Source of the DNA: Kiloniellales bacterium
GTDB lineage: Bacteria > Pseudomonadota > Alphaproteobacteria > Kiloniellales > JBOHKJ01
Direction: 5' to 3'
Assembly: GCA_050728975.1 (NCBI GenBank)
Contig: JBOHKJ010000288.1
Span: 1-58,898 of the forward strand
Length of the DNA: 58,898 nt
Shown here in pieces: positions 33,232 to 45,603 of this stretch (positions within the stretch are counted from its first letter, which is position 1; each line of letters starts with the position of its first letter). A program made the translations under genes and the position numbers. Below the pieces are notes generated by a model. That model had not been told where the DNA came from. It saw only the letters and a program-made list of their open reading frames with translations, and ran no database searches.

Positions 33232-33915
33232 CTACGAGCCACCTTCCGCGTCGCGCGCGGCCTTGGCGCCGCCTGGAGCCGTGGAGTCCTCGGTGCAGGT
33301 CCCGATCGAGCCGTCGCCGCAGGTCCGGCCGTCGATCCAGATGGCACCTTCGAGATCTGCGCCCGGCACCCATTCCGACCCGGAAAAGTCAGTTCCGACA
33401 ACGGTCGCGCCGGTCAAGTTAGCGTCGTTCAGGCGCGCGGCCTGGAGTCGGGCGCCGCTGAGATTGGCCCGGCGCAGATCGGCGTCCTGGAGGTTGGCGC
33501 CGACCAGATTCGCTTCGGAAAGATCGGCCCCGGCCAGGTCGGCGCCACGCAGCCAAGCCTTCTCCAAGTCCGCACCGGACAGATCCGCATCCTTTAGGTG
33601 GGCTCCATTGAGCGAGGCGCCGCGCAGGTCGGCATTCGATAAGCTGGCGCCCTGCAACCTGGCGCCGCGCAGATTGGCGTCCGACAGGTCGGCGCTCGAC
33701 AGATCGACCCCGGTCAGGGTTGCGTCGGACAGATTAATGGAGGACAGCGGCCTGCCGGAGAGACTGGCGCCGGTCAGGTCCGCGCCGGAACAGTTGGCAA
33801 AAGCCCTTGGCTCGCAAGCCGCCCTGGCGCCGTTCGCTCCCCATCCGATCAACAGGAGATAGATCGCCAATGCCGCCAAGGGTAGGTGTCTGCCATCCGC
33901 TCCGGTCACTGGCAT
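33232..33915 (-). CDS. Secreted pentapeptide-repeat protein
   Basis: Signal peptide (LAALAIYLLLIGWGANGARA), then about 30 A(D/N)LxG-type pentapeptides (ADLTGASLSG...ANLRGARLQGASLSNADLRGASLNGAHLKDADLSGADL...) and a Cys-containing tail. Confidence 0.85.
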   Translation of the reverse strand: MPVTGADGRHLPLAALAIYLLLIGWGANGARAACEPRAFANCSGADLTGASLSGRPLSSINLSDATLTGVDLSSADLSDANLRGARLQGASLSNADLRGASLNGAHLKDADLSGADLEKAWLRGADLAGADLSEANLVGANLQDADLRRANLSGARLQAARLNDANLTGATVVGTDFSGSEWVPGADLEGAIWIDGRTCGDGSIGTCTEDSTAPGGAKAARDAEGGS

Positions 33916-34323: not shown

Positions 34324-34539
34324 GTGCAGCTGGATTTCTCTCGTGCTTCTGCGGTGCGGCAATCTGGTGGGACCGGAATCGGGAACGCTTGCGCGCCACG
34401 CAGTGGCGTCACTGTCGTCGGCGGGATGCTGGCTGCCACCGTGATCGGACTCTTTGTTATCCCGACGCTGTTCGTGGCGATACGGCGAATTGCCGAATGG
34501 GGTGCTCGCAAGCCCGCGAGCGAGAAGCCGGCTGAGTAG
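34324..34539 (+). pseudogene. Relic of the 3' end of an RND (AcrB-type) efflux permease gene
   Basis: [36 protein letters not shown] parallels the AcrB C-terminus [30 protein letters not shown]. About 1000 codons of upstream coding sequence are absent. Confidence 0.6.
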
Positions 34540-34546
34540 CGCGCCT

Positions 34547-36376
34547 ATGCCCCAGGCAAGGCCGAGCAGTTGGCTCGATCGTCCGGTCGACGAAGCGTTC
34601 GACCATGTCCTCGGCGCGCCTGACGCGCCAATCACCCTTGTCGAATACGGCAGCTATGCCTGCCCGCATTGCCGGGCTGCCAATGAGCGCATTGCCGAGG
34701 TCCGCGACCAGTTGGGCGATCGCCTGCGCTACGCATTCCGGCATCGCCCGGTCCCCGGGAGCGACGTCGCTCGTCGCGCCGCCGAATTGGTGGAGCGCAC
34801 CGGCGATCCCGAGCACTTCTGGAAGGCGCATGTCGAATTGATGACGCGCTCGGAAACGCTGACCGAAGACGACTTGCGTGCCGTGGCCGGCGATTTGGCC
34901 CTGGCGCGGGAAAGCTTCGATGCCACCGAAGATGCCGGCAGACGCGCGCAGGCGCGGGTCGATGTCGACGTGAACAGCGCTAGCGCCAGCGGGGTGCTGA
35001 TCACGCCGACCTTCTTCATCAATGGCCGCCGCTACGACGGTCCGTGGGACGAAGTGTCGTTTTCCGACGCGATGCTCGGCACGCTGGGCCATCGCGTGCG
35101 TTCGGCGGCGCTCGACTTCGCAAGATGGGGACCGTCGGCCGGCGCGCTGCTTCTGGCCGCCACGCTCCTGGCGGTCGTGCTGACCAACACGTCGCTGGGT
35201 CCCGAATTCGAGGCAATCTGGCAGCAGAATTTCGGCTTCACACTCGGCGACGCCAGTTTCCGCCTGTCGTTGCTGCAATGGATCAACGACGGTCTGCTGA
35301 CGATCTTCTTCCTGGTTGTGGGGTTGGAGATCAAGCGTGAATTTACCGTCGGTCATCTGGCCAGCCGGCGTTCCGCGGCTCTGCCGATCGCCGGAGCCAT
35401 CGGCGGCATGGTCGTACCGGCGGCCTTGTACATACTGGTGATTCCACAAGGGCCCTGGTCGCATGGCTGGGGCATACCGATCGCGACAGATACCGCCTTC
35501 GCGGTCGCGCTGATCGTGACGATGGGTCGGCGGGTGCCGATCGAGCTGCGTATCTTTCTGACCGCCGCCGCTATCGTCGACGACATCGGCGCAATTCTGT
35601 TGGTGGCGGTCTTATATTCGGCCGACCAGCAGATCGGATACCTCGCCGTAGCCGCTGCGATAGTTGGCGGGTTGGCGCTGCTCAATCGGGCCCGTATCTA
35701 TCGCCTGTTTCCGTACATGCTGTTGGGTATCGCGCTTTGGGCTTGCATACAGGCAGGCGGTCTGCACGCCACCTTGACCGGCGTGCTCCTGGCGCTGTTT
35801 ATCCCGACACGACCGCCACCGAATCTGAATGGCTTGATGGCGCAGGCGAATGCAATTATGGCGGCTGACGCGCGGCAGGGCGGCGAGGTACTTCGGCATG
35901 GCCCTTCGCTGCCGGTGCTGCACGCGCTCGACGCAATCCACGACCGGCTGGAATCGCCGGCGGCCCGCCTCTTGAGGCACGCCGGCTCGCGGTCGAGCTA
36001 TCTGGTGTTGCCGCTCTTCGCCTTGGCCAATGCTGGGGTCGCCCTGACGGTGGCGGTCGTGAGCGGCCACCAGCAATTGATGCTCGCGATCGTTGTTGGT
36101 CTGGCGATCGGCAAGCCGCTCGGCATGGTGTCGGTTTCTGCGTTGACGGTCTGGCTGGGTATTGCCGTCAAGCCAGAGGAGTACTCCTGGCGCCAGCTGG
36201 CAGGCGCCGGTACCCTGGCCGGCATTGGCTTCACCATGTCATTGTTCATTGCCGGCCAGGCCTTTCCGGTGGCAGCCGACTTTGCAGCCGCCAAAATTGC
36301 CGTGTTCGTCGCCTCGGTGCTCTCCGCAGTCGTCGGCGTGACGCTGCTATGGGGCGCCGGGCGCGATTCGCGCTAG
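34547..36376 (+). CDS. nhaA: Na+/H+ antiporter NhaA with an N-terminal DsbA-like thioredoxin-fold domain
   Basis: ATG 34547. N-terminal domain [17 protein letters not shown]...[17 protein letters not shown] (CxxC). NhaA core follows: [42 protein letters not shown]. Confidence 0.85.
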
Positions 36377-36462
36377 AGAAGAGTCTGCCGCCAATGATCC
36401 GCCGATGACGGGTTGCGCAAGCCGCAGCAGCCTAACCGTTTGCGGGAGGCTTCCTCGACGGT

Positions 36463-36576
36463 CTAGAGACCGAGCAGAAGCAAAGGGAGAAAGAAGATCA
36501 CGGCCAGAATGCACCAGGCCGCGATTACGTCACGCAGCGAGACGTTTGCTTCGCGCTCGAGTTTGTCGCTGACCAC
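36463..36576 (-). CDS. Possible 37-aa tail-anchored membrane peptide
   Basis: GTG start preceded by AGAGGA. (M)VSDKLEREANVSLRDVIAAWCILAVIFFLPLLLLGL. Below the ORF-track length cutoff. Confidence 0.3.
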   Translation of the reverse strand: MVSDKLEREANVSLRDVIAAWCILAVIFFLPLLLLGL

Positions 36577-36684
36577 GGGGTAGTCCTCTATTTTGCCTGA
36601 CGACTTCAATTTGTCCGTCCTGAGTTGGAATAGGTTCCGTTGGAACGGATTGCCGGTGATGCTGAGCCTTTCAGCGGCGAGTGA

Positions 36685-36702
36685 CTGTGGGATTTGGCAC
36701 AG
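36685..36702. promoter_or_regulatory. CRP/Clr-like palindrome CTGTG-N8-CACAG
   Basis: CTGTGGGATTTGGCACAG has perfect 5-bp arms with CRP-type spacing (TGTG-N8-CACA). It lies about 215 bp upstream of the cyclase gene start. Confidence 0.3.
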
Positions 36703-36781
36703 CTCGGCAGACCGTGATCGGGCCTTTCAGGCAGTGCGGCAAGTGGGACATGCGCTGGCGCCGGAGGCGCCCTAACTGGTT

Positions 36782-36812
36782 GCAAAAAAATACGGTTTCA
36801 GGAATTTTTTGC
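36782..36812. repeat. AT-rich inverted repeat GCAAAAAA-N15-TTTTTTGC
   Basis: 8-bp perfect arms at 36782-36789 and 36805-36812, in the cyclase upstream region. Confidence 0.8.
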
Positions 36813-36917
36813 GATTCCGAGGTCGCGCGTTTGCCTGTAGAATGACCCAGGTCGTGAGGATCGACCTTTGCGGCCCCCCTCCCGCAAGGCGCCGGTGCAG
36901 CGGCGCGGACTAAGGGG

Positions 36918-39900
36918 TTGAAAAGAATGAGATGTCACTATTGCGGCGCGGCGGTTCGCGATCGAGATGACATCTGCAGTTCCTGCGGCCGTGACCTGAC
37001 ATTGGCCTTCGCCAAGTGCTGGTCGTGCGGCGGCGCCAATCCCGGGAACCAGAAATTCTGCGGCCATTGCGGAGCCTTTCTTTCCGCAGGCCCGCCCAGT
37101 GCTTCGGAAGAGGTTCTGCCGCCGGCGGCGCAACGGGGCAGCGATGCAGCCTCCGATCGCCGGCAGGTCACGGTTCTGTTCGTCGATCTAGTCGGCTCGA
37201 CGGAGATTTCGCGCCGCCTCGATCCCGAGGATCTGAGCGAACTGCTCGGCGCGATACAAAAGTGCTGCGACGAGGTCATCACGCGATTTGAGGGCTTTAC
37301 TGCTCAGCTCCTGGGCGATGGCATCCTTGCCTACTTCGGCTATCCGAAGGCCCATGAGGACGATCCCGAGCGGGCAGTGCGGGCGGGGCTGGGTGTCATT
37401 CAGGCCATGGGGGCCGTCAGCCGCCATTTCGATCAGGATATCGCGCTTCGGGTCGGCATCGCGACAGGTACGGTTCTGACGGGCAACCGGACTGTGCTAG
37501 GCGGCCCGGTGTCCCTCGCAGTTGTCGGCGATACGCCCAATCTGGCCGCCCGGCTTCAGGGCATCGCGAGACCGAACAGCGTCGTCGTCTCGCAATCGAC
37601 CAAGGACATCTTGCGGAAGCTGTTCGACTTCAAGGACCTCGATCGGCAAAGGCTGAAGGGGTTCGGCGACCCGGTCGGCGCCTGGGAGGTCACCAGCGAG
37701 CGCCCCGTAATGACCCGCTTCGAAGCGCTCAGATCCGATGTTCATGCACCGCTGGTGGGCAGGCGGGAAGAACTGGCGTTGCTGAATAGCCGCTGGGATC
37801 TGGCGAAGAGAGGAACCGGTCAGATCGTATTGTTGACCGGAGAGGCGGGCATCGGGAAATCGCGGATCATCGAGAATTTTCGACGCGCGACAGCGGCCGA
37901 TGGGATGATTCTCGTCTTTCAATGTTCGTCCCACTACGCCAACAGCGCGCTGTTCCCGGTCATCGCACAAATGGAGAAGACGATCGGCTTGCTGCCGGAG
38001 GATGGCAAGGAGGCACGTCTCGAGAAGCTCAAGAAGAGCATATCTGCGGTGCTGGCCGACTCCAGCCTCGCTGTGCCGCTCTTTGCGAGGCTGCTGTCGA
38101 TTCAAGTCGATGGGGACGAGTCGGCCGCGGCAATGAGCGCGCAGCGCTGGAGGGAGGCGACCTTCCGCGTGCTTCTTGGCTACCTGGAAGCTCTGTCCAA
38201 GACCGAGCCTCTCCTCGTGATTGTCGAAGACGCTCATTGGATCGACCCCAGCACGCTCGAGCTGATCGAGTTGATGAGGGGCTGGATCCGTTCGGCTCGT
38301 GTGCTTTTGATCGTCACGGCGCGGCCCGAGTTCATGCCGTCTTGGACGACAACGCCCGGACTCTCCATGTTGACGCTCAATCGATTGAGCGCAAGCGAGA
38401 GCGCGACCTTGGTGCGCGGCTTGCCCGGCTCGGGCAGCTTGCCGGAGGACGTCGTGGCAAAGCTTTGCGATCGGGGTGACGGCGTGCCGCTGTTCATCGA
38501 GGAGCTTGCCTTGTCGCTCCTGTCATCGGGAAGCCAAGACGATCCGGCATCGGCGTCGGTCCGGCAGAACAAGGAGTCGGGATTCTCCATTCCAGCCACC
38601 CTCCAGGATTCCCTGATGGCCAGACTGGACATGCTCGGTCCGAGCAAAGACTTGGCACAGATCGCTGCGGCAATCGGCAGAGACTTCAGTCTCGATCTCC
38701 TGGAGGAGATTGCCGAGCGGCCGATTGCAGAGCTTCAAGGTGCCATGGATTCCATGATCCGCGCCGCTTTGATCTATAGCAGCGGCGTACCGCCGCACTG
38801 GAACTACAGCTTCAAGCACACCCTGGTGCAGGATGCGGCTTATTCGAGCTTGCTGCGAGGGCGCCGGAAGAAACTGCACGGCCGGATCGCAGAGGTGCTC
38901 GAGGGCCGGTTTCAGCGCAGCAAGCCGGAACTGATCGCCCATCACTACACGCTGGCTCGCAACCCGCAAAAGGCGATCGAGTACTGGGAGGAGGCGGGTC
39001 GGCGGGCGCTTCGCAGCTCGGCCGACCGCGAGGCTGTCGGCCATTTCGAGCGCGCAACCCAATTGCTAGGCGAGTTGCCCAGCACGATCGCGACCAAGAG
39101 CCGGGAGCTGTCCCTGAGAATCTTGTTCGGTCCGGCCATGATCAACACGCTGGGGCCCATGAGTCGAGAAGTGCAGGGGAACTACCGGAGGACGGACCGG
39201 CTGTGTCAGGAGCTTTCCGAAAGTTCGGAGCACTTTGCTGCGATCTGGGGCTCCTGGCGCATTACGCGAAGCTTCGAGAAGAAACGCGAGATCGCCGATC
39301 AACTCCTTCGGCTTTCGAATCGGTTGGACGACGAAGGGCTCCGCTTGCAGGCCCATCACACCCAGTGGGCCACGCTCTTTCATCTCGGCTTGCATGAGGA
39401 ATGTGTCCGGCACGTCGACGAAGGCATGCGACTATACAGGCTGCAGGACTATCGGGCGCATGCGTCGCTCTACGGCGGACACGACCCGAAAGTCTGCGGC
39501 TGTGGAGAGGCGGCATTTTCGCTGTGGCTCATGGGGCAGCCACGCGAAGCGCTACTCCGCTCGCGTGACGCGATGGGCTGGGCGCGGCTGATGGCGCACG
39601 CTGGCAGCATAGCGCACGCACTCGACATGAACCTAGTTCTCCAGTTCTTCAGGAGGAACGTGGTGGGCACCATCGAACGCTCCGAGCAGCTGTTGCGCTT
39701 CGCGGAGGAGGAGGGCTTCCCCATCCACAAGGCAAAAGGCAGTATCTACCGCGGATGGGCAATGTGCCGTATGGGGGACGTCGAGCGCGGGTTCAAGCTG
39801 ATGCAGCAGGGCCTCGACTCACAGAAGGAAACCGGCACACGCGAGGATTTTCCGCTCTTCTACAGCATGTTGGCTGAAGTCTTCAGAATGCGTGAGGAGT

Positions 39901-40238
39901 TCGATCGCGGAATTGGTGTCGTGGATCAGGGCGTGTCGGAAGCGGAGGATAGCGGTCTGCAGTACTGGATGGCGGAGCTTTATCGCTGCAAGGGCGAGCT
40001 CCTTCATGCGCGCGGCGATGCCACCGACGAAGCCGAGAAGGTGCTGCAGTTTGCCTGCCGAGTTGCCTCCCATCAAGGCGCATCGCTTCTGGAGCTGCGC
40101 GCCACCAAATCGCTGGCTCGGCTATGGGCGCAAACCGGGCGGCCGAGCCAGGCTCGGGATATACTGGCAACGACGCGGCGCGCGCTCGCCGCCCGCGTGA
40201 AACGTAATGGCATCGACAAGATAGAGGCGCTGCACTGA
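36918..40238 (+). CDS. Double zinc-ribbon / class III adenylate-guanylate cyclase / AAA(STAND) ATPase / TPR multidomain protein
   Basis: CHYCGAAV...CSSCG...CWSCGG...CGHCG. Cyclase domain RRQVTVLFVDLVGSTE...GDGILAYFGYP. P-loop LLTGEAGIGKSR. Long helical-repeat C-terminus. TTG 36918 or ATG 36927 start. Confidence 0.9.
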   Translation: MKRMRCHYCGAAVRDRDDICSSCGRDLTLAFAKCWSCGGANPGNQKFCGHCGAFLSAGPPSASEEVLPPAAQRGSDAASDRRQVTVLFVDLVGSTEISRRLDPEDLSELLGAIQKCCDEVITRFEGFTAQLLGDGILAYFGYPKAHEDDPERAVRAGLGVIQAMGAVSRHFDQDIALRVGIATGTVLTGNRTVLGGPVSLAVVGDTPNLAARLQGIARPNSVVVSQSTKDILRKLFDFKDLDRQRLKGFGDPVGAWEVTSERPVMTRFEALRSDVHAPLVGRREELALLNSRWDLAKRGTGQIVLLTGEAGIGKSRIIENFRRATAADGMILVFQCSSHYANSALFPVIAQMEKTIGLLPEDGKEARLEKLKKSISAVLADSSLAVPLFARLLSIQVDGDESAAAMSAQRWREATFRVLLGYLEALSKTEPLLVIVEDAHWIDPSTLELIELMRGWIRSARVLLIVTARPEFMPSWTTTPGLSMLTLNRLSASESATLVRGLPGSGSLPEDVVAKLCDRGDGVPLFIEELALSLLSSGSQDDPASASVRQNKESGFSIPATLQDSLMARLDMLGPSKDLAQIAAAIGRDFSLDLLEEIAERPIAELQGAMDSMIRAALIYSSGVPPHWNYSFKHTLVQDAAYSSLLRGRRKKLHGRIAEVLEGRFQRSKPELIAHHYTLARNPQKAIEYWEEAGRRALRSSADREAVGHFERATQLLGELPSTIATKSRELSLRILFGPAMINTLGPMSREVQGNYRRTDRLCQELSESSEHFAAIWGSWRITRSFEKKREIADQLLRLSNRLDDEGLRLQAHHTQWATLFHLGLHEECVRHVDEGMRLYRLQDYRAHASLYGGHDPKVCGCGEAAFSLWLMGQPREALLRSRDAMGWARLMAHAGSIAHALDMNLVLQFFRRNVVGTIERSEQLLRFAEEEGFPIHKAKGSIYRGWAMCRMGDVERGFKLMQQGLDSQKETGTREDFPLFYSMLAEVFRMREEFDRGIGVVDQGVSEAEDSGLQYWMAELYRCKGELLHARGDATDEAEKVLQFACRVASHQGASLLELRATKSLARLWAQTGRPSQARDILATTRRALAARVKRNGIDKIEALH

Positions 40239-40285
40239 GCGGTCGGTGGATCGGCGACCGGGATCAAGACAGGGGCATCGGCGAG

Positions 40286-41569
40286 ATGAATGGCTCGGCT
40301 ATAGCGCCGAGAGAAGCAGTCGGGAGAAGGGAGCTCTCGCAGGGCATCGCTCGTCCTGGGGATCGAAAGCGCTATCTCACCGGCACGCACCGGGTTCTGG
40401 CGCCCGCGTTGACCTTGGATCTGGTCCGACCTCACCTCGACGCCATGGGAATTACGCGGATCGCCAACGTGACCGGACTCGATGTCATCGGCATCCCCGT
40501 CGTCATGGTCTGCCGCCCCAACTCCCGCTCCATCTCCGTGGCTCAAGGAAAAGGCGCGACGCTCGAGGCGGCGAAGGCATCTGGCGTCATGGAGGCGATC
40601 GAGACCTTCCACGCGGAGCGCCTGGAAGGGCCTGTATGCGTCGCAAGCTACAGCGAGCTCCGGCAGGAGTTGCCGGTCGTCGACGTGCGACGCTTGGCGC
40701 AATCGCCCAAGACCAGATTCCACGGGGACCTGAGAATTCCTTGGGTGGCGGGCCGCGAGGTGACGACAGGCGAGGCGATCTGGCTGCCCTACGAGGTCGT
40801 GCACACCGACTACAGCCTACCCTTGCCCGAGGGAAGCGGCTGTTTTCCGGCGAACACCAATGGTCTGGCGTCGGGCAATTGCGTTTCGGAGGCGATCAGC
40901 CACGGAATTTGCGAGGCGATTGAGCGGGATGCGGTGACGCTCTGGAAGCGTCGCGGTCGCTCGCTGGGCGATGCGATGGCGATAGATCCCGATTCGGTCG
41001 ACGACCCCCTCTGTCAGGAGCTTCTCGTGAAGTTTCGAGAGGCCGATCTCGACGTCTGCATCTGGAACGCGACTTCGGATATCGGCGTTGCCACCTTCTA
41101 CTCCTTGATCGTGGGGCGTCGCCCCGGCTTCGCCGATCCCGAGTTCGGTTCCGGGTGCCATCCATCGCGGGCGATCGCCCTGGCGCGCGCCCTGACCGAA
41201 GCGGCGCAGGCCCGCACCACCTACATCGCTGGCGTCCGGGACGACTATCTGCCGGAGCTCTACAACGAGGAGGTGCGATCGCGCCGCTTGCAGCACTGTC
41301 GGCGCGCGCTCTCCACCCATCGGCCGATCGATGATTTCCGCAAAACGCCGGACTTCGGCGGAGAGTCCATCGTGGACGATGTCGACTGGTTGACCGACCG
41401 GCTTCGCGAACGCGGACTTGATCAGGTGATCGCGGTCGATTTGACGCGTGAGGAGCTCGGCATTGCAGTCGTCAAGGTCGTCGTTCCCGGCTTGGAGGGA
41501 CCGGACAAGGGCCGCGATAGCGACTATTCGCCCGGGGCGCGGGCACGAGCCCTTAGCGAGGGGCACTAG
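40286..41569 (+). CDS. YcaO-domain protein (ATP-dependent amide-activating enzyme)
   Basis: GIPVVMVCRPNSRSISVAQGKGATLEAAKASGVMEAIE and FPANTNGLASGNCVSEAISHGICEAIERDAV are hallmark YcaO blocks. 427 aa. Confidence 0.9.
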   Translation: MNGSAIAPREAVGRRELSQGIARPGDRKRYLTGTHRVLAPALTLDLVRPHLDAMGITRIANVTGLDVIGIPVVMVCRPNSRSISVAQGKGATLEAAKASGVMEAIETFHAERLEGPVCVASYSELRQELPVVDVRRLAQSPKTRFHGDLRIPWVAGREVTTGEAIWLPYEVVHTDYSLPLPEGSGCFPANTNGLASGNCVSEAISHGICEAIERDAVTLWKRRGRSLGDAMAIDPDSVDDPLCQELLVKFREADLDVCIWNATSDIGVATFYSLIVGRRPGFADPEFGSGCHPSRAIALARALTEAAQARTTYIAGVRDDYLPELYNEEVRSRRLQHCRRALSTHRPIDDFRKTPDFGGESIVDDVDWLTDRLRERGLDQVIAVDLTREELGIAVVKVVVPGLEGPDKGRDSDYSPGARARALSEGH

Positions 41570-41571
41570 AG

Positions 41572-42570
41572 ATGTCTGCCTATGTCTTCCTCGGACCGAC
41601 CTTGCCGGCGACCGAGGCGCGATCGATCTGCGAGGTCCGGATTCTGCCACCCGTGAGACAGGGCGACCTCTATAGGTTGGTCGAGGCCGAGCGGCCGGCG
41701 GCAGTCGGAATCGTCGACGGCGCCTTCCAGCACGTTCCGGCGGTCTGGCACAAGGAAATCCTCTGGGCAATGAAGCGAGGCGTGTATGTCGTCGGAGCGG
41801 CGAGCATGGGTGCGCTTCGGGCCGCTGAGCTCGAAGCCTTCGGCATGAAGGGCGTCGGTGCGGTGTTTGGAGCCTACCGCGATGGCGTTTTGGCCGGCTA
41901 TGACGATGAAGCTTTCGAAGACGACGACGAAGTCGCGGTCATACACGGCCCGCCGGAAACCGGCTACCTGCCGCTTTCCGAAGCGCTCGTCAACATTCGC
42001 GTCACGCTGCGCGCGGCCGAGGCGGCGGGAGTCTTGTCGAGCGCCTTCAGGAGGCGCCTCGCCGCGATCGCCAAGGCGACCTTCTACCAGGAGCGCAGCT
42101 ACGACGGCCTGATTGCGGCGGCCTCGAAGGACGGTTCCCCACCGCACGAGCTCGAAGCCTTCGCCGCCTGGCTGCCAGAATGCCGGATCGATCAGAAACG
42201 GGCGGACGCTCGGTTCCTGTTTTCGACCCTGAAAGAGTGGCTCGAAGGCGACCGCGAGCCGGCGCGCAACTCCTACCGCTTCGTTCATACCACGCTTTGG
42301 CAGAGCGCCATCGAGCGGCTCGAAGCGGGCGCGGCCACGACTCCGGCGAGTGGAACGCCCGACCTCGGTACCGGCGTGGCGGCGCTCGCCGCCCTGGTCT
42401 GGTATTTCGAAGATCGTCTCGGACAAGCGATCCCCCACGATCTGGAGCTTTATGCGAGAGCGCAGGGCTACCGCGATCATCAGGACTTCCGCGACGCCGT
42501 GGCACGTGACTATCGCCGCGCACGGCTCGCCCACGGCATCGACAGCCGGGGCAATGAGGTGGATGCATGA
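41572..42570 (+). CDS. TfuA-like protein with a C-terminal extension
   Basis: YVFLGPTLP...ILPPVRQGDLYRL...AVGIVDGAFQHVPAVWHKEILWAMKRGVYVVGAASMGALRAAEL is the TfuA domain pattern. The gene starts 2 nt after the ycaO stop. Confidence 0.85.
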   Translation: MSAYVFLGPTLPATEARSICEVRILPPVRQGDLYRLVEAERPAAVGIVDGAFQHVPAVWHKEILWAMKRGVYVVGAASMGALRAAELEAFGMKGVGAVFGAYRDGVLAGYDDEAFEDDDEVAVIHGPPETGYLPLSEALVNIRVTLRAAEAAGVLSSAFRRRLAAIAKATFYQERSYDGLIAAASKDGSPPHELEAFAAWLPECRIDQKRADARFLFSTLKEWLEGDREPARNSYRFVHTTLWQSAIERLEAGAATTPASGTPDLGTGVAALAALVWYFEDRLGQAIPHDLELYARAQGYRDHQDFRDAVARDYRRARLAHGIDSRGNEVDA

Positions 42571-43919
42571 CGATGGCGGCGTTTCACCGACTGGACAGCG
42601 AGCTTCAAGGGCGCGGAACCCGTTTTCGGCTCTATCCGCAGATAGCTACCGAAGCGTCATCGCAATCAGAGATCGTTTGGACCTCTCCGCGCCCTGGAAG
42701 TGTTGGTCCCGGACCGAGCGATCGGCGTATGTATGTGGTGCATCCGACGTCCAAACTGGAGCCCTACGAGTTTCCCTTCCTGCCGCCCTACCGGGGGCCG
42801 AGATTCCCGGATGCTCTACCCGATCGTTTTGGACATTTTGACTATCTCGAACCGGGGACGCCGGCCTTCAACGCCGCGCATCTTTACGGCGCAGTACGCC
42901 GCGTGCTCGATATCTGGGAAGCCTATTTCGAGCGCGAAATCCCGTGGCGGTTCCGCGCGCCGCGCAGCCGCCTGGAGTTGATTGCTTTCGTGGATTGGAA
43001 CAACGCCCAGTGCGGTTACGGATATCTCGAGGTCGGCTACGGAGAGTCTGAAACCGGCGGCGCACGGTTGCCCTACTGTCTGAATTTCGATGTGCTGGCC
43101 CACGAGACCGGGCACGGGATCATCTATTCGGAGCTGGGAGTTCCAGCCACACATGCGGTCACTACCGAGTACCGGGGTTTCCAGGAAGCCTCGGCTGACC
43201 TGGTGGCTTTGATCTCCGCTATGCATTTCGACTCGGTCGTCGATCGCGTTCTGCTGAAATCGGCGGGCAACATCTACGCCGAGAACGAGCTCAATCGGAT
43301 CGGCGAGCTGTCGGAAACCGAGCAGATCAGGCATGCGAGCAACGAATACAAGATGTCGGACGTTCCCGACGTGAGGATTCCGCCGGAACTGCTCTCCCAA
43401 CCGGAACTTCATCTTGCCGGGGAGCCATTGACTGGCGCGGGCTTCGACATTCTGGTCGAGATCTATCAGGAGTTGCTGGTAGAACTCGGGCTGATCGATG
43501 GTCGTACCGCCGATCTGTCTTATCACGTTCCCCAGAACCAAGATTCGGCAGGCCTGATTCAAGAGCGTTTCGATCGCGCCTATCGAGGGCGTCATGCCGG
43601 CTTCGCGCTGGCGTTGAGGCAGGCGAGGGACTGCGTCGGGCGCATCCTGGCCTTGGCCTGGTCCGGCTTGAGTCCGGATTTCCTCAGCTATCGTGGCGTC
43701 GCAGCTGCGTTGCTCGACGCCGAGCGGATCGTTTCGGGCGGCCGATTCCGGAGACTCATCGAGGAAAACCTGGCCTGGCGGGAGATTCCCCTGCCGGAGC
43801 CGGCCGGCCGCGCGACATCGCGCGAGGACCTCGCGGGCCCGGCCGCGGCGCGCGCGATCGCCGCCCGGATTCGCCGTCGAGGGGTAAGCGCCCTTCGAAG
43901 GGGTTTTTTGTTGGTATAG
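42567..43919 (+). CDS. Hypothetical zinc-metallopeptidase-like protein (HExxH...ExxxD, gluzincin pattern)
   Basis: ATGA overlap with tfuA and a GAGGTGG SD. VLAHETGHGIIYSELG...FQEASADLVALISAM resembles the thermolysin HExxH plus downstream Glu helix. No signal peptide. Confidence 0.7.
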   Translation: MTMAAFHRLDSELQGRGTRFRLYPQIATEASSQSEIVWTSPRPGSVGPGPSDRRMYVVHPTSKLEPYEFPFLPPYRGPRFPDALPDRFGHFDYLEPGTPAFNAAHLYGAVRRVLDIWEAYFEREIPWRFRAPRSRLELIAFVDWNNAQCGYGYLEVGYGESETGGARLPYCLNFDVLAHETGHGIIYSELGVPATHAVTTEYRGFQEASADLVALISAMHFDSVVDRVLLKSAGNIYAENELNRIGELSETEQIRHASNEYKMSDVPDVRIPPELLSQPELHLAGEPLTGAGFDILVEIYQELLVELGLIDGRTADLSYHVPQNQDSAGLIQERFDRAYRGRHAGFALALRQARDCVGRILALAWSGLSPDFLSYRGVAAALLDAERIVSGGRFRRLIEENLAWREIPLPEPAGRATSREDLAGPAAARAIAARIRRRGVSALRRGFLLV

Positions 43920-43954
43920 AGATAGCGCCCGAGCGCAAACAGAGGAGGTCGTGT

Positions 43955-44533
43955 ATGCAAGAAAACCTTTTGTCTCCGTCAAACATCGTGCTGTTCGGCA
44001 GGCCATTTCCCTTGTCTGTGGACAAAAACTCCATTCCCAAGGGCTTAGGCGAGAATCGATTCCTGGAAAGACAGCTCGGCGCCGTGGGAGCGCGCTTCGC
44101 CAGGATCTACGCCTTTTCCTACGAAGGCAGCTTCTACAACCTCCCAAAGCCGGCCATCTATCTGGTGCACGGCAGGGGCCGGTCGTTGGATCAACTTCCA
44201 GGAGGCAGTTCGAAGACAAAGGATTTCCGTGCTCAGAACATCGGTGCAAGCGTGGACGAAACCGATGTGGTGGCAAAGGAATTCGACTTCCAATCGGGAT
44301 TGATGTTCTGGGAGTACGACAAGTGCGATATTTCGATGCGGATCGATATCGTATCGGGAGCCCTCGACAATGTCCTCCTGGATGCAGCGCTGTCGGTGAC
44401 GGCGCCGGATGCCTTGACGTCGCGTTCGGATCTGATCGCGCGCTCGGATTTAACCTCGCGCTCCGATCTCACGTCCCGCTCGGATCTCTCCTCGCGGTCA
44501 GATTTGACGGCGCGGCATCGCTTGAAAGGATAG
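43955..44533 (+). CDS. Hypothetical 192-aa protein with a C-terminal six-fold hexapeptide repeat (candidate modification substrate)
   Basis: GAGGAGG lies 7 nt before the ATG. Balanced composition. Visibly less GC-rich at the 5' end than its neighbours. Tail: TSRSDL IARSDL TSRSDL TSRSDL SSRSDL TARHRL KG. Confidence 0.7.
   Translation: MQENLLSPSNIVLFGRPFPLSVDKNSIPKGLGENRFLERQLGAVGARFARIYAFSYEGSFYNLPKPAIYLVHGRGRSLDQLPGGSSKTKDFRAQNIGASVDETDVVAKEFDFQSGLMFWEYDKCDISMRIDIVSGALDNVLLDAALSVTAPDALTSRSDLIARSDLTSRSDLTSRSDLSSRSDLTARHRLKG
44417..44524 (+). repeat. Six in-frame 18-bp tandem repeats
   Basis: acgtcgcgttcggatctg / atcgcgcgctcggattta / acctcgcgctccgatctc / acgtcccgctcggatctc / tcctcgcggtcagatttg / acggcgcggcatcgcttg. 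Confidence 0.95.
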
Positions 44534-44598
44534 AGCTAAATCGAATCGCCCGATTCTCGGCGGCAATGGTGGACAGACATCGCGCTACAGGCTTGCCG

Positions 44599-45294
44599 CT
44601 AGATCCCCAGAACGTCTTCCACCAGCCGGGACAGACGGTGCACATCGTTGACCACGATCTTGTTGCCCTGTCGCTCGATGAGTCCCGACTTGGAAAGTTT
44701 GCTCAGCTCGCGAGTGACGGCCTCCCGATGCGTGCTGATGCGGCTTGCTATCGCACTGTGGGTCGGAGCCGGAGAGATTGCAGCGCGATTCTCGTTCAGC
44801 ATGTTGGAGCGCGCCAGCCGCAGGAGCTCGGCGTGAATCCGGTTGCGGACGCTGAGGGCCGAAACCTCGAACACTCGCTCGGAGAGTGAGCGGACGGTTT
44901 CCGCCAGGCGCTTCAGGGTTACCACCGCGAAATCGGGATGCTCGTGTAGAACGCGCCCGAACTGCTGCGCCGTCAGCGACGCGATCGTGCAATTGGAAAG
45001 GGCGACAACGCCGGCCGATCGCGGCTTGCCGTCGATTGCCGCCAATTCCCCGAACATCTCGCCGGCGGCCATGTCGCGAAAAGTGACCTCTTTGCCTGCA
45101 GGCGAGTAGACCGTGACGCGCACGCTGCCAGAGACGATGAAGAAGACGTCGGACGATTCGTCTTGGTGCCCGATAATTTGCTGGTCGCGCAGGTACTCGT
45201 GCCACCGCACCAGGCGCTCAAGAGCCGTGATCGTGTCGGGCGCGACCGACTCGAGTGCGCGCAGCTTGCTCAAGGATTTGTCGGACTGCGGCAT
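44599..45294 (-). CDS. Crp/Fnr family transcriptional regulator (cNMP-binding domain plus HTH)
   Basis: cNMP-binding fold FFIVSGSVRV...FGELAAIDGKPRSAGVVA. C-terminal HTH THSAIASRISTHREAVTRELSKLSKSGLI. No N-terminal Fnr-type Cys cluster. Confidence 0.9.
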   Translation of the reverse strand: MPQSDKSLSKLRALESVAPDTITALERLVRWHEYLRDQQIIGHQDESSDVFFIVSGSVRVTVYSPAGKEVTFRDMAAGEMFGELAAIDGKPRSAGVVALSNCTIASLTAQQFGRVLHEHPDFAVVTLKRLAETVRSLSERVFEVSALSVRNRIHAELLRLARSNMLNENRAAISPAPTHSAIASRISTHREAVTRELSKLSKSGLIERQGNKIVVNDVHRLSRLVEDVLGI

Positions 45295-45603
45295 CTGGCT
45301 CGTCAGGGCCCCTCGCCAGTTCGTCCGGAGATAAGAAGAGATGACGCCCTGGGGGGCCGATCATTCCTGCATCGTCGCAATGGGTCAACGATCTTGCCGC
45401 CAAGCTCGGCGGCCGTCGGTCGACGGAAGGCCGCTTAGGCCCGGGTGTTCGCGCGATGTTCCCTTTGGGGTGGACGCTAGGAGCCGGAGCGCGGCGATGG
45501 AAGCCTCCAGGATTTGGGAGGGGCGAGCGCCTGATCTTTGAGTGAAAATGGGACTCTCGGGAATCTCGTTGCCCTGGGACCGGCGAGCGGGAGGTCAGCT
45601 GCG

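Follow-up and report, generated by a model that had tools for sequence, protein, structure and literature searches.

The ycaO-tfuA locus and its genes

The stretch of DNA analysed here, hereafter the window, comprises the 58,898 nt of contig JBOHKJ010000288.1 from a metagenome-assembled genome (MAG) of a Kiloniellales bacterium. It harbours five genes in tandem, i.e. a gene for a signalling protein of the STAND (signal transduction ATPases with numerous domains) type (g0), ycaO, tfuA, a gene for an HExxH protein (g3) and one for a repeat-tailed protein (g4), which may together form a maturation cassette resembling those for peptides that ribosomes make and that are modified after translation (RiPPs). 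A first-pass annotation of the same DNA had proposed a four-gene cassette for thioamide-type maturation, running from ycaO to g4. These four open reading frames (ORFs) are all present on the plus strand and linked, and the motifs quoted for them were all found in the translations, but the conserved unit comprises five genes and includes g0 (36918-40238) upstream. Its features are as follows:

36918-40238, plus strand: g0, STAND-type signalling protein, 1106 aa (TTG as listed start, in-frame ATG at 36927)
40286-41569, plus strand: YcaO, 427 aa, ATP-dependent backbone-amide activating enzyme (PF02624)
41572-42570, plus strand: TfuA partner protein, 332 aa (MGH6947581.1; PF07812; core, residues 1-225)
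42567-43919, plus strand: g3, HExxH protein, 450 aa, predicted cytoplasmic thermolysin-fold (M4/M36-like) zinc metallopeptidase
43943-43949, plus strand: Shine-Dalgarno (SD) sequence GAGGAGG of g4, read directly, 5 nt 5' of the ATG at 43955
43955-44533, plus strand: g4, repeat-tailed protein, 192 aa, from family alignment and tail repeats
43955-44401, plus strand: g4 N-terminal domain, residues 1-149, conserved, predicted folded and beta-rich; candidate leader/recognition domain
44402-44533, plus strand: g4 C-terminal tail, i.e. APDALT, five hexapeptides, ARHRLKG and the stop codon; candidate core peptides

The genes are tightly packed, and reading the junctions directly off the DNA letters gave the same spacing as previously proposed, i.e. 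a 2-nt gap between ycaO and tfuA (TAG-AG-ATG at 41567-41574), a 4-nt overlap between tfuA and g3 (gcATGAcg at 42567-42570) and a 35-nt spacer containing GAGGAGG between g3 and g4. The cassette spacers (47, 2, -4 and 35 nt) hold no additional small ORFs.

Conservation of the cassette across genomes

Whether HExxH and repeat-tailed neighbours accompany ycaO-tfuA pairs in other genomes had been put forward as a decisive comparison, and in the 48 loci with the pair described below they do. The genomes of 185,579 species representatives were scanned with an alignment of g3, which has a relative in 269 of them, and the best 80 loci were analysed with our own ORF calling and hidden Markov models (HMMs). 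Sufficient flanking sequence for judging the neighbourhood was available for 58 species-representative loci. YcaO and TfuA are encoded directly upstream of g3 in 48 of these 58, g0 is also there in 46 of the 48, and a repeat-tailed ORF lies directly downstream of g3 in all 48 (45 recognized automatically by repeats or the g4 HMM, three by eye). Two of the three genes found by eye are intact (L061 and L070), while the third is frameshifted, the frameshift lying within the repeat region of the g4 homologue of Defluviicoccus SSA4 (L064:9240-10300). At one further locus, tfuA, g3 and g4 are present with no YcaO detected upstream (L084:3500-8000).

The gene order is conserved as well: four contigs with g4 homologues show the order g0-ycaO-tfuA-g3-g4 despite unrelated flanks, and in a family member with repeats of period 5 a TfuA gene, a g3-sized gene and g4 follow each other in the same order, the preceding gene (not searched) being cut at the contig end. 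The cassette is carried mainly by Alpha-, Beta- and Gammaproteobacteria, but also by Rokubacteria and Chloroflexota MAGs, and at least one carrier, Aestuariispira insulae CECT 8488, is cultured. The tail of its g4 (locus L027) holds some 12 or more SRAVMA units.

A conserved domain followed by a hypervariable repeat tail

The most telling element of the cassette is g4. In the window its tail contains five canonical units at 44420-44509, i.e. SRSDLI, ARSDLT, SRSDLT, SRSDLS and SRSDLT (consensus [S/A]RSDL[T/I/S]), with the degenerate APDALT before and ARHRLK-G after them. A hexapeptide tail is thus present, but in place of the six tandem hexapeptides counted initially there are five canonical units plus two degenerate flanking ones. 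Tandem Repeats Finder reported a period of 18 and 5.4 copies with 70 % matches for the tail DNA. The codons of the units differ synonymously (CGT, CGC and CGG for Arg; TCG, TCC and TCA for Ser; CTG, TTA, CTC and TTG for Leu), indicating that the peptide is held by selection and that the units do not reflect a recent DNA duplication.

Assuming the 192-aa ORF to be a real protein, as the first-pass annotation did, was justified. There are 49 close homologues, and a profile search recovered 583 clusters (50 % identity), of which 445 have E values up to 1e-10. Ratios of non-synonymous to synonymous substitution rates (dN/dS) of 0.13-0.23 against three relatives, with dS saturated, indicate purifying selection, the GC content at third codon positions (GC3) of 0.70 is like that of the neighbouring genes, and a GGAGG-type SD sequence precedes g4 in ten of the ten related loci checked. 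Searches of g4 against Pfam (also with E up to 10), NCBIfam, PADLOC and the sequences of the Protein Data Bank (PDB) gave nothing significant.

In the AlphaFold2 model, residues 10-80 and 110-145 are predicted as beta-rich with a predicted local distance difference test score (pLDDT) of 80-93, while the tail falls below 50 and is predicted to be disordered. A fold search with the N-terminal domain model returned no match among solved structures (best E 1.2), and a kinship to the known leader domains NHLP, Nif11 and RiPP recognition element (RRE) is therefore unsupported.

Comparison of 263 members of the g4 family shows a conserved N-terminal domain and a hypervariable tail. Besides SRSDLT, the unit types include ARSDLA, SRADLT, SRAALT, SRAMMQ, SRAVMA, SRGAAA, SRSAAA, SRMAMA and SRGDMT, as well as SGAGV, ARVSG, ARGMN, ARISGAE and VRSGQGLD. 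The period is 5 in 59 members, 6 in 95, 7 in 29 and 8 in 11, and the copy number ranges from 1 to about 24 units per g4. Members of the period-6 class without exception share an Arg at one position (95/95), which follows a Ser or Ala in 90/95 of them, and every unit keeps Leu, Met or Ala at position 5. The tails close with a short His-containing segment, e.g. RHRLKG, GPHQD or HEDWEE. A conserved recognition domain combined with hypervariable short tandem units is a hallmark of multi-core RiPP precursors, and this family-wide hypervariability, which had been overlooked before, is the strongest argument for regarding the units as core peptides.

YcaO and TfuA resemble archaeal thioamide-forming pairs

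The identities of the two modifying enzymes were confirmed by the Pfam comparison that had been suggested for them. YcaO matches PF02624 over profile positions 1-325 of 325 (E 5e-83, 279.5 bits vs a cutoff of 25.7), and its ATP-site motifs EAIE.F and EAIERDA align with those of MJ1094; TfuA matches PF07812 (E 2e-44, 150.8 bits vs a cutoff of 30). The top NCBIfam model for YcaO is TIGR03266, the YcaO for thioamidation of a glycine in McrA, with 239.5 bits against a cutoff of 365; the SagD model for thiazole/oxazole-modified microcins (TOMMs) reaches a lower 145 bits and the NF040716-type group only 28 bits. Among solved structures, MJ1094 comes closest to the YcaO (6PE3/6PEU; E 5e-35), before LynD and TruD. 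Similarly, the top NCBIfam model for TfuA is NF033432 (200.4 bits, cutoff 235.2), and the solved TfuA 6XP8 can be aligned with residues 3-225 of TfuA (E 2e-36). By these scores both proteins are relatives, not members, of the McrA thioamidation equivalogs TIGR03266/NF033432, i.e. a genuine YcaO and TfuA that are, in sequence, closer to archaeal thioamide-forming pairs than to azoline-forming TOMM enzymes.

The two genes are adjacent and co-oriented in the window and adjacent in the 48 related loci. Pfam searches of the window flanks and of four independent related loci revealed neither an E1-like/Ocin-ThiF partner nor a flavin mononucleotide (FMN) dehydrogenase, in agreement with the absence of both noted earlier.

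Most cassettes encode a TfuA with an uncharacterized C-terminal extension of about 200 aa (190-250 aa). The TfuA of the window has an in-frame gap of ~130 aa within this extension compared with its closest relatives (42250-42400, residues ~255-270; vs L003:7125-8507). TfuA proteins with the extension go together with canonical g4 proteins, and those without it with longer, divergent g4 proteins with units of the SRAMMQ, SRAVMA and SRAAMA types. This co-variation suggests a direct interplay between g4 and the TfuA extension.

g3 is predicted to be a thermolysin-fold peptidase

The HExxH protein had been taken for a protease, and the structure prediction agrees with this. All 29 aligned g3 homologues have H179, E180, H183, E207 and D211, which constitute the HExxH...ExxxD signature of gluzincins. 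The AlphaFold2 model (pLDDT 81.5, predicted template modelling score 0.85) was compared with the PDB using Foldseek, and the top 30 matches consist of M4 and M36 peptidases only (E 2e-6 to 6e-4, probability 1.0, target-normalised template modelling score 0.55-0.65), i.e. M4 elastase, thermolysin, vibriolysin, aureolysin, ProA and protealysin, and the M36 fungalysin. At the sequence level, nothing significant was found in Pfam (also with E up to 10), NCBIfam, PADLOC or the PDB sequences; the score against PF01447 (E 0.11, 13.3 bits) lies under the cutoff of 22.4 that delimits the M4 family. While the predicted two-domain fold and the zinc site HExxH...ExxxD are common to g3 and M4/M36 peptidases, the identity is 10-14 % and g3 has additional N-terminal beta and C-terminal helical parts. 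Based on the model, g3 is a remote clan-level relative of M4/M36 and not a family member.

Neither a signal peptide nor an FTP/PepSY propeptide was seen when the N-terminus was inspected by eye, and g3 therefore looks cytoplasmic. The NCBI annotation of g3 starts at Met55 and gives a protein of 396 aa, leaving out 54 codons (42567-42728). Since the motif GTRFRLYPQ (residues 17-25), which is kept in all homologues, lies before that start, the 450-aa version is favoured and the annotated start is probably too far downstream.

The STAND protein g0 and a Crp-type regulator

The fifth gene, g0, encodes a double zinc ribbon (DZR, E 2e-7), a class III nucleotide cyclase (Guanylate_cyc, 1e-23), an AAA_16 NTPase (1e-20) and a TPR-like C-terminal region, with weak TPR matches in the C-terminal 600 aa. 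It scores 548 bits against TIGR03903, the 'TOMM system kinase/cyclase fusion', below the cutoff of 705.75 and over model positions 270-1266 only. Both share the cyclase-AAA_16-TPR body and are found beside YcaO-type RiPP clusters, but g0 lacks the N-terminal kinase and has a zinc ribbon in its place, and the TIGR03903 family goes with cyclodehydratase/NHLP clusters whereas g0 goes with a TfuA pair.

The cyclase motifs FVDLVGST, GDG and NLAARL, including the metal-binding and transition-state motifs (37150-37700), look intact by eye, which makes the output of a cyclic nucleotide (cNMP) read by Crp plausible. The nucleotide need not be cyclic AMP (cAMP). Adenylate cyclases usually have an adenine-specifying Lys three positions before GDG, while g0 has a Gln there (AQLLGDG). 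Searched with PADLOC, the cyclase domain matches PycC pyrimidine cyclases generically (E 9e-14). Considering the Gln and these matches, cAMP should not be assumed as the product. The PADLOC defence models gave nothing for YcaO, TfuA, g3 or g4, and an anti-phage defence function based on the combination of STAND protein and cyclase was rejected, since the similarity is a generic one of the cyclase domain only.

The candidate read-out of the cyclase is encoded convergently to g4:

44599-45294, minus strand: Crp/Fnr-family cNMP-binding regulator (MGH6947584.1; cNMP_binding 7e-20, HTH_Crp_2 3e-13)

Close Crp orthologues (E 1e-58 to 1e-81) adjoin eight related cassettes (L003, L004, L008, L029, L035, L040, L073 and L078); this frequent neighbour had been missed, like g0, in the first-pass annotation. 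In 48 loci the effector domain of g0 is a cyclase and in three it is a sigma-54 activator, and a Crp-like gene lies within 8 kb of 15/48 cyclase-type vs 0/3 sigma-54-type loci. A co-variation of the effector type with a nearby Crp is, with only three sigma-54 loci, no more than suggestive, and the regulator is probably an accessory read-out of the g0 cyclase.

In the sigma-54-type variants, g0 carries a sigma-54 activator AAA+ domain and HTH_8 in place of the cyclase. In two loci (L001:1646-1775 and L013:700-1100), a promoter matching the consensus TGGCAC-N5-TTGC is located closely upstream of g0 on the other strand; it has no equivalent in the window. It faces a divergent gene for a ~190-aa protein, for which the scanned copy (L001 1067-1645) had no Pfam match; the gene is homologous between L001, which has two copies, and L013, and one L001 copy shows a hydrophobic N-terminal segment by eye. 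This divergent gene may be a regulated target of the sigma-54-type g0.

Flanks and regulatory features of the window

Further genes around the cassette encode an NhaA-thioredoxin fusion, a pentapeptide-repeat protein, an extracytoplasmic function (ECF) sigma factor, a response regulator, a TauD-type oxygenase and parts of an ATP-binding cassette (ABC) importer. The first two lie upstream, i.e. an NhaA Na+/H+ antiporter with an N-terminal thioredoxin/DsbA-like domain (34454-36376) and, beyond it, the pentapeptide-repeat protein (33232-33915, minus strand). Neither turned up beside the related cassettes inspected, although no explicit search for them was made.

Rfam models matched nothing over 36000-45600 (E up to 1), a promoter scan found one sigma-70-like site vs 1.6 expected by chance, and a regular-expression search of 36300-45400 for CRP/FNR palindromes, using the E. 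coli-type consensus, found none, so that no regulatory site is proposed. One further feature was seen at the end of g3:

43877-43915, plus strand: GC-rich hairpin and U-run inside the g3 3' end, a terminator-like match just 5' of the g4 ribosome-binding site (RBS)

The hairpin, located in the last g3 codons, has a GC-rich stem of 9 bp followed by GGGGTTTTTTGTTGG directly before the g4 RBS. It occurs at the same spot in L003, L008 and L011, but without the U-run, and a terminator role was therefore dropped. The hairpin could serve to adjust how much precursor transcript is present relative to enzyme transcripts.

Proposed function and alternative explanations

YcaO enzymes activate backbone amides with ATP and, together with TfuA, the characterized outcome is a thioamide (PMC8120280, PMC6511847, PMC13063428, PMC8939145, PMC5589413); TfuA acts as a thiocarboxylate hydrolase that releases sulfide from thiocarboxylated ThiS (summarized in PMC13063428 and PMC8939145). 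We favour, with moderate confidence, the interpretation that the five genes form a RiPP-like maturation cassette in which g4 is a multi-core precursor with a leader domain, thioamidated by YcaO/TfuA and processed by g3. The folded N-terminal domain of g4 (~150 residues) would act as the leader or recognition domain onto which the enzymes dock, and the disordered tail would provide the tandem cores. YcaO would spend ATP on activating backbone amides in this tail, and TfuA would deliver sulfide from a thiocarboxylated ThiS-type carrier encoded elsewhere, such that at least one amide in each unit is converted to a thioamide. The thiovarsolin precedent suggests, as a candidate site, the amide on the N-terminal side of the invariant Arg. 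The modified tail would then be cut by g3, either releasing it as a whole or dicing it into thioamidated peptides of 5-8 residues, while the STAND cyclase g0 and the neighbouring Crp-type regulator would control or respond to the pathway. We infer the role of g4 as YcaO substrate, the thioamide nature of the product, the cleavage of g4 by g3 and all roles of g0 from the arrangement and the relatives of these genes.

Thermolysin-type enzymes favour a hydrophobic P1' residue. Position 5 being Leu, Met or Ala, a single cut in each unit, e.g. ...SRSD|LTSRSD|L..., is conceivable but speculative.

Several observations weigh against this interpretation. g4 is far larger than usual RiPP precursors, and its N-terminal domain has no detectable tie to known leaders. 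Ser or Thr is present in most units, leaving azoline chemistry possible on sequence alone, and both YcaO and TfuA score under the cutoffs of the McrA equivalog models. No sulfur-carrier gene lies within the cassette, and a conserved exporter or immunity gene is missing from all of the cassettes; the absence of an exporter pointed out in the first-pass annotation holds for the window flanks and four related loci, where no dedicated one was found. Finally, g3 homologues stand alone in nine genomes from other phyla, lacking YcaO, TfuA, g0 and g4 within 8 kb and having heterogeneous neighbours, which suggests that this peptidase family is broader than the cassette and not intrinsically tied to the pathway. 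The hosts of these homologues (42-47 % identity; L042, L054, L056, L066, L072, L074, L081, L082 and L085) include Fibrisoma limi, Clostridium hydrogeniformans, Scytonema sp. HK-05, Actinoplanes spp., Saccharicrinis, and Scalinduaceae and Riflebacteria MAGs. Two more loci (L075 and L086) also have g3 without cassette genes, but their flanks are too short to count.

The lack of an exporter and the sizeable predicted folded domain of g4 would also suit a product that stays in the cell as a protein. We regard it as unlikely, but deserving consideration, that g4 remains whole or is trimmed and serves as an intracellular thioamide-bearing protein that binds a metal or a partner via its tail, with g3 as a maturation or turnover protease. 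YcaO does thioamidate whole proteins, i.e. McrA (PMC5589413) and uL16 (PMC13063428), and some tails end in His- and acid-rich segments (HQDDDED, HEDWEE, GYHGHDDS) or have Met-rich units (SRAMMQ). However, a unit so variable in sequence, period and number of copies next to a conserved domain marks core peptides and not a structural element, the linkage to a dedicated endopeptidase is strict, and the SRSDLT units of the window are devoid of metal-binding residues. That g4 is not modified by the pair at all appears very unlikely to us. In this case YcaO and TfuA would act on g3, g0 or an unlinked protein, and for the protease or the STAND sensor g4 would serve as substrate, inhibitor or adaptor only. 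Co-occurrence is indeed silent on which protein is modified, the g3 family is found without YcaO elsewhere and L084 combines TfuA, g3 and g4 with no YcaO detected upstream; yet the disordered repeat tail is the sole hypervariable, peptide-like element of the cassette, its spacers offer no other small ORF and the g4 subtype co-varies with the TfuA extension.

A different YcaO chemistry on the tail, such as oxazoline formation at Ser/Thr or the use of a new nucleophile, with TfuA in a non-sulfur or accessory role, seems scarcely probable. It would be in line with the Ser or Ala before the invariant Arg and the Ser/Thr in most units, with the scores of both enzymes under the thioamidation equivalog cutoffs and with the uncharacterized ~200-aa extension of most TfuA proteins. 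Against it, all characterized TfuA-associated YcaOs make thioamides (PMC8120280, PMC6511847, PMC5589413), an E1-like/RRE partner and a dehydrogenase are absent nearby, some unit types, e.g. GGRVA and GGGKV, are free of Ser, Thr and Cys, and the YcaO has in MJ1094 a closer relative than in LynD or TruD. The chance that the genes are juxtaposed by accident, or that g4 is spurious or non-coding, is practically nil: although neither Pfam nor NCBIfam has a model for g4 and the protein collection lacks the exact protein of the window, this explanation is refuted by the comparative data, i.e. the 583 homologous clusters, the low dN/dS with saturated dS, the neighbour-like GC3, the strong conserved SD and the co-occurrence in 48/48 loci. 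Overall, every part of the original interpretation that could be examined in silico held.

Beyond the favoured interpretation as a thioamide-forming maturation cassette, the fact that a STAND cyclase is constantly linked to it hints at a role in signalling. One may speculate, although we consider it quite unlikely, about a peptide-signalling circuit of a kind undescribed in Gram-negatives, in which diced, protease-resistant thioamidated 5-8-mers would bind as ligands to the TPR-like sensor of g0 and switch on a cyclase that is read by Crp. The same scenario, with no better prospects, would have the sigma-54-type variants directly activate the divergent sigma-54 promoter. In size and pattern, unit peptides with Arg at position 2 are reminiscent of the Phr peptides of Firmicutes, which have TPR receptors.

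Novelty and significance

The cassette is apparently conserved and undescribed: a full-text literature search found no description of it, though it may have been mentioned elsewhere. The TfuA of the A. insulae cassette is listed in the supplement of a global survey from 2021, where its precursor, protease and STAND partners are not discussed, and the word 'repeat' is absent from the main text of that survey (PMC8120280). According to the same work, TfuA-associated YcaO pairs are abundant in Proteobacteria, which account for about 60-70 % of the clusters, while all thioamidated RiPPs known at that time were from Actinobacteria (PMC8120280). The enzyme pair has therefore already been catalogued, and what appears to be new here, judged by sequence comparison, is the precursor, protease and regulator families of a YcaO-TfuA thioamide RiPP type.

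Our data thus provide a concrete, testable candidate substrate for one widespread group of proteobacterial YcaO-TfuA pairs, together with three families for which there is no Pfam or NCBIfam model, i.e. the precursor with its leader domain, the cytoplasmic M4-like protease and the C-terminal extension of TfuA. Systems of this kind could escape precursor finders that are set up for short peptides. Should the products turn out to be small thioamidated peptides, the diversity of the units would be a ready-made library for the substrate rules of YcaO/TfuA.

Comparison with known systems

The closest precedent, missed in the first-pass annotation, is the thiovarsolin system (var) of Streptomyces varsoviensis (PMC6511847), in which the precursor VarA (1-5 repeats), VarY (YcaO) and VarT (TfuA) suffice for the formation of Ala-Pro(thio)-Arg peptides. 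Both systems have adjacent YcaO and TfuA genes, a precursor with C-terminal short repeats and an Arg in each unit, and an E1-like partner is found in neither. The known product of the var cluster has its thioamide at the amide preceding Arg and is released as small peptides. From sequence, the cassette would work in a similar manner but lacks the features that define membership. The var system is actinobacterial, VarA is short (set apart from g4 by description only) and its family has 1-5 repeat copies compared with 1-24 in the cassette. Host peptidases are invoked for var, which has no cluster protease, whereas the cassette encodes a dedicated M4-like one, and the folded leader domain of ~150 aa and the STAND cyclase are present only in the cassette. 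Conversely, the heme-oxygenase-like VarO, an ATP-grasp enzyme, an amidinotransferase and a major facilitator superfamily (MFS) exporter of the var cluster were not detected by Pfam in the window or the related loci.

The archaeal McrA system (MJ1094, 6XP8) provides the best models and structures for both enzymes, also has adjacent or overlapping ycaO and tfuA genes and presumably uses the same chemistry, i.e. the exchange of O for S. It differs in modifying a single site on a large enzyme instead of tandem repeats, and McrA is absent in these bacteria. Within the Pseudomonadota, the E. coli YcaO offers a precedent for the modification of a full-length protein, uL16, as opposed to a short peptide (PMC13063428). 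This YcaO, however, works without TfuA, is not clustered with its substrate and belongs to another YcaO group (NF040716-type).

The comparison may be extended to the cyanobactins. Cyanobactin cores are parted by recognition sequences and excised by the subtilisin-like PatA/PatG, whereas the g4 units abut directly and the protease is a predicted thermolysin-fold metalloenzyme. Common to cyanobactin clusters (see also PMC6511847) and the cassette are the several cores per precursor, which in g4 would be the repeat units, and the protease or proteases encoded within the cluster.

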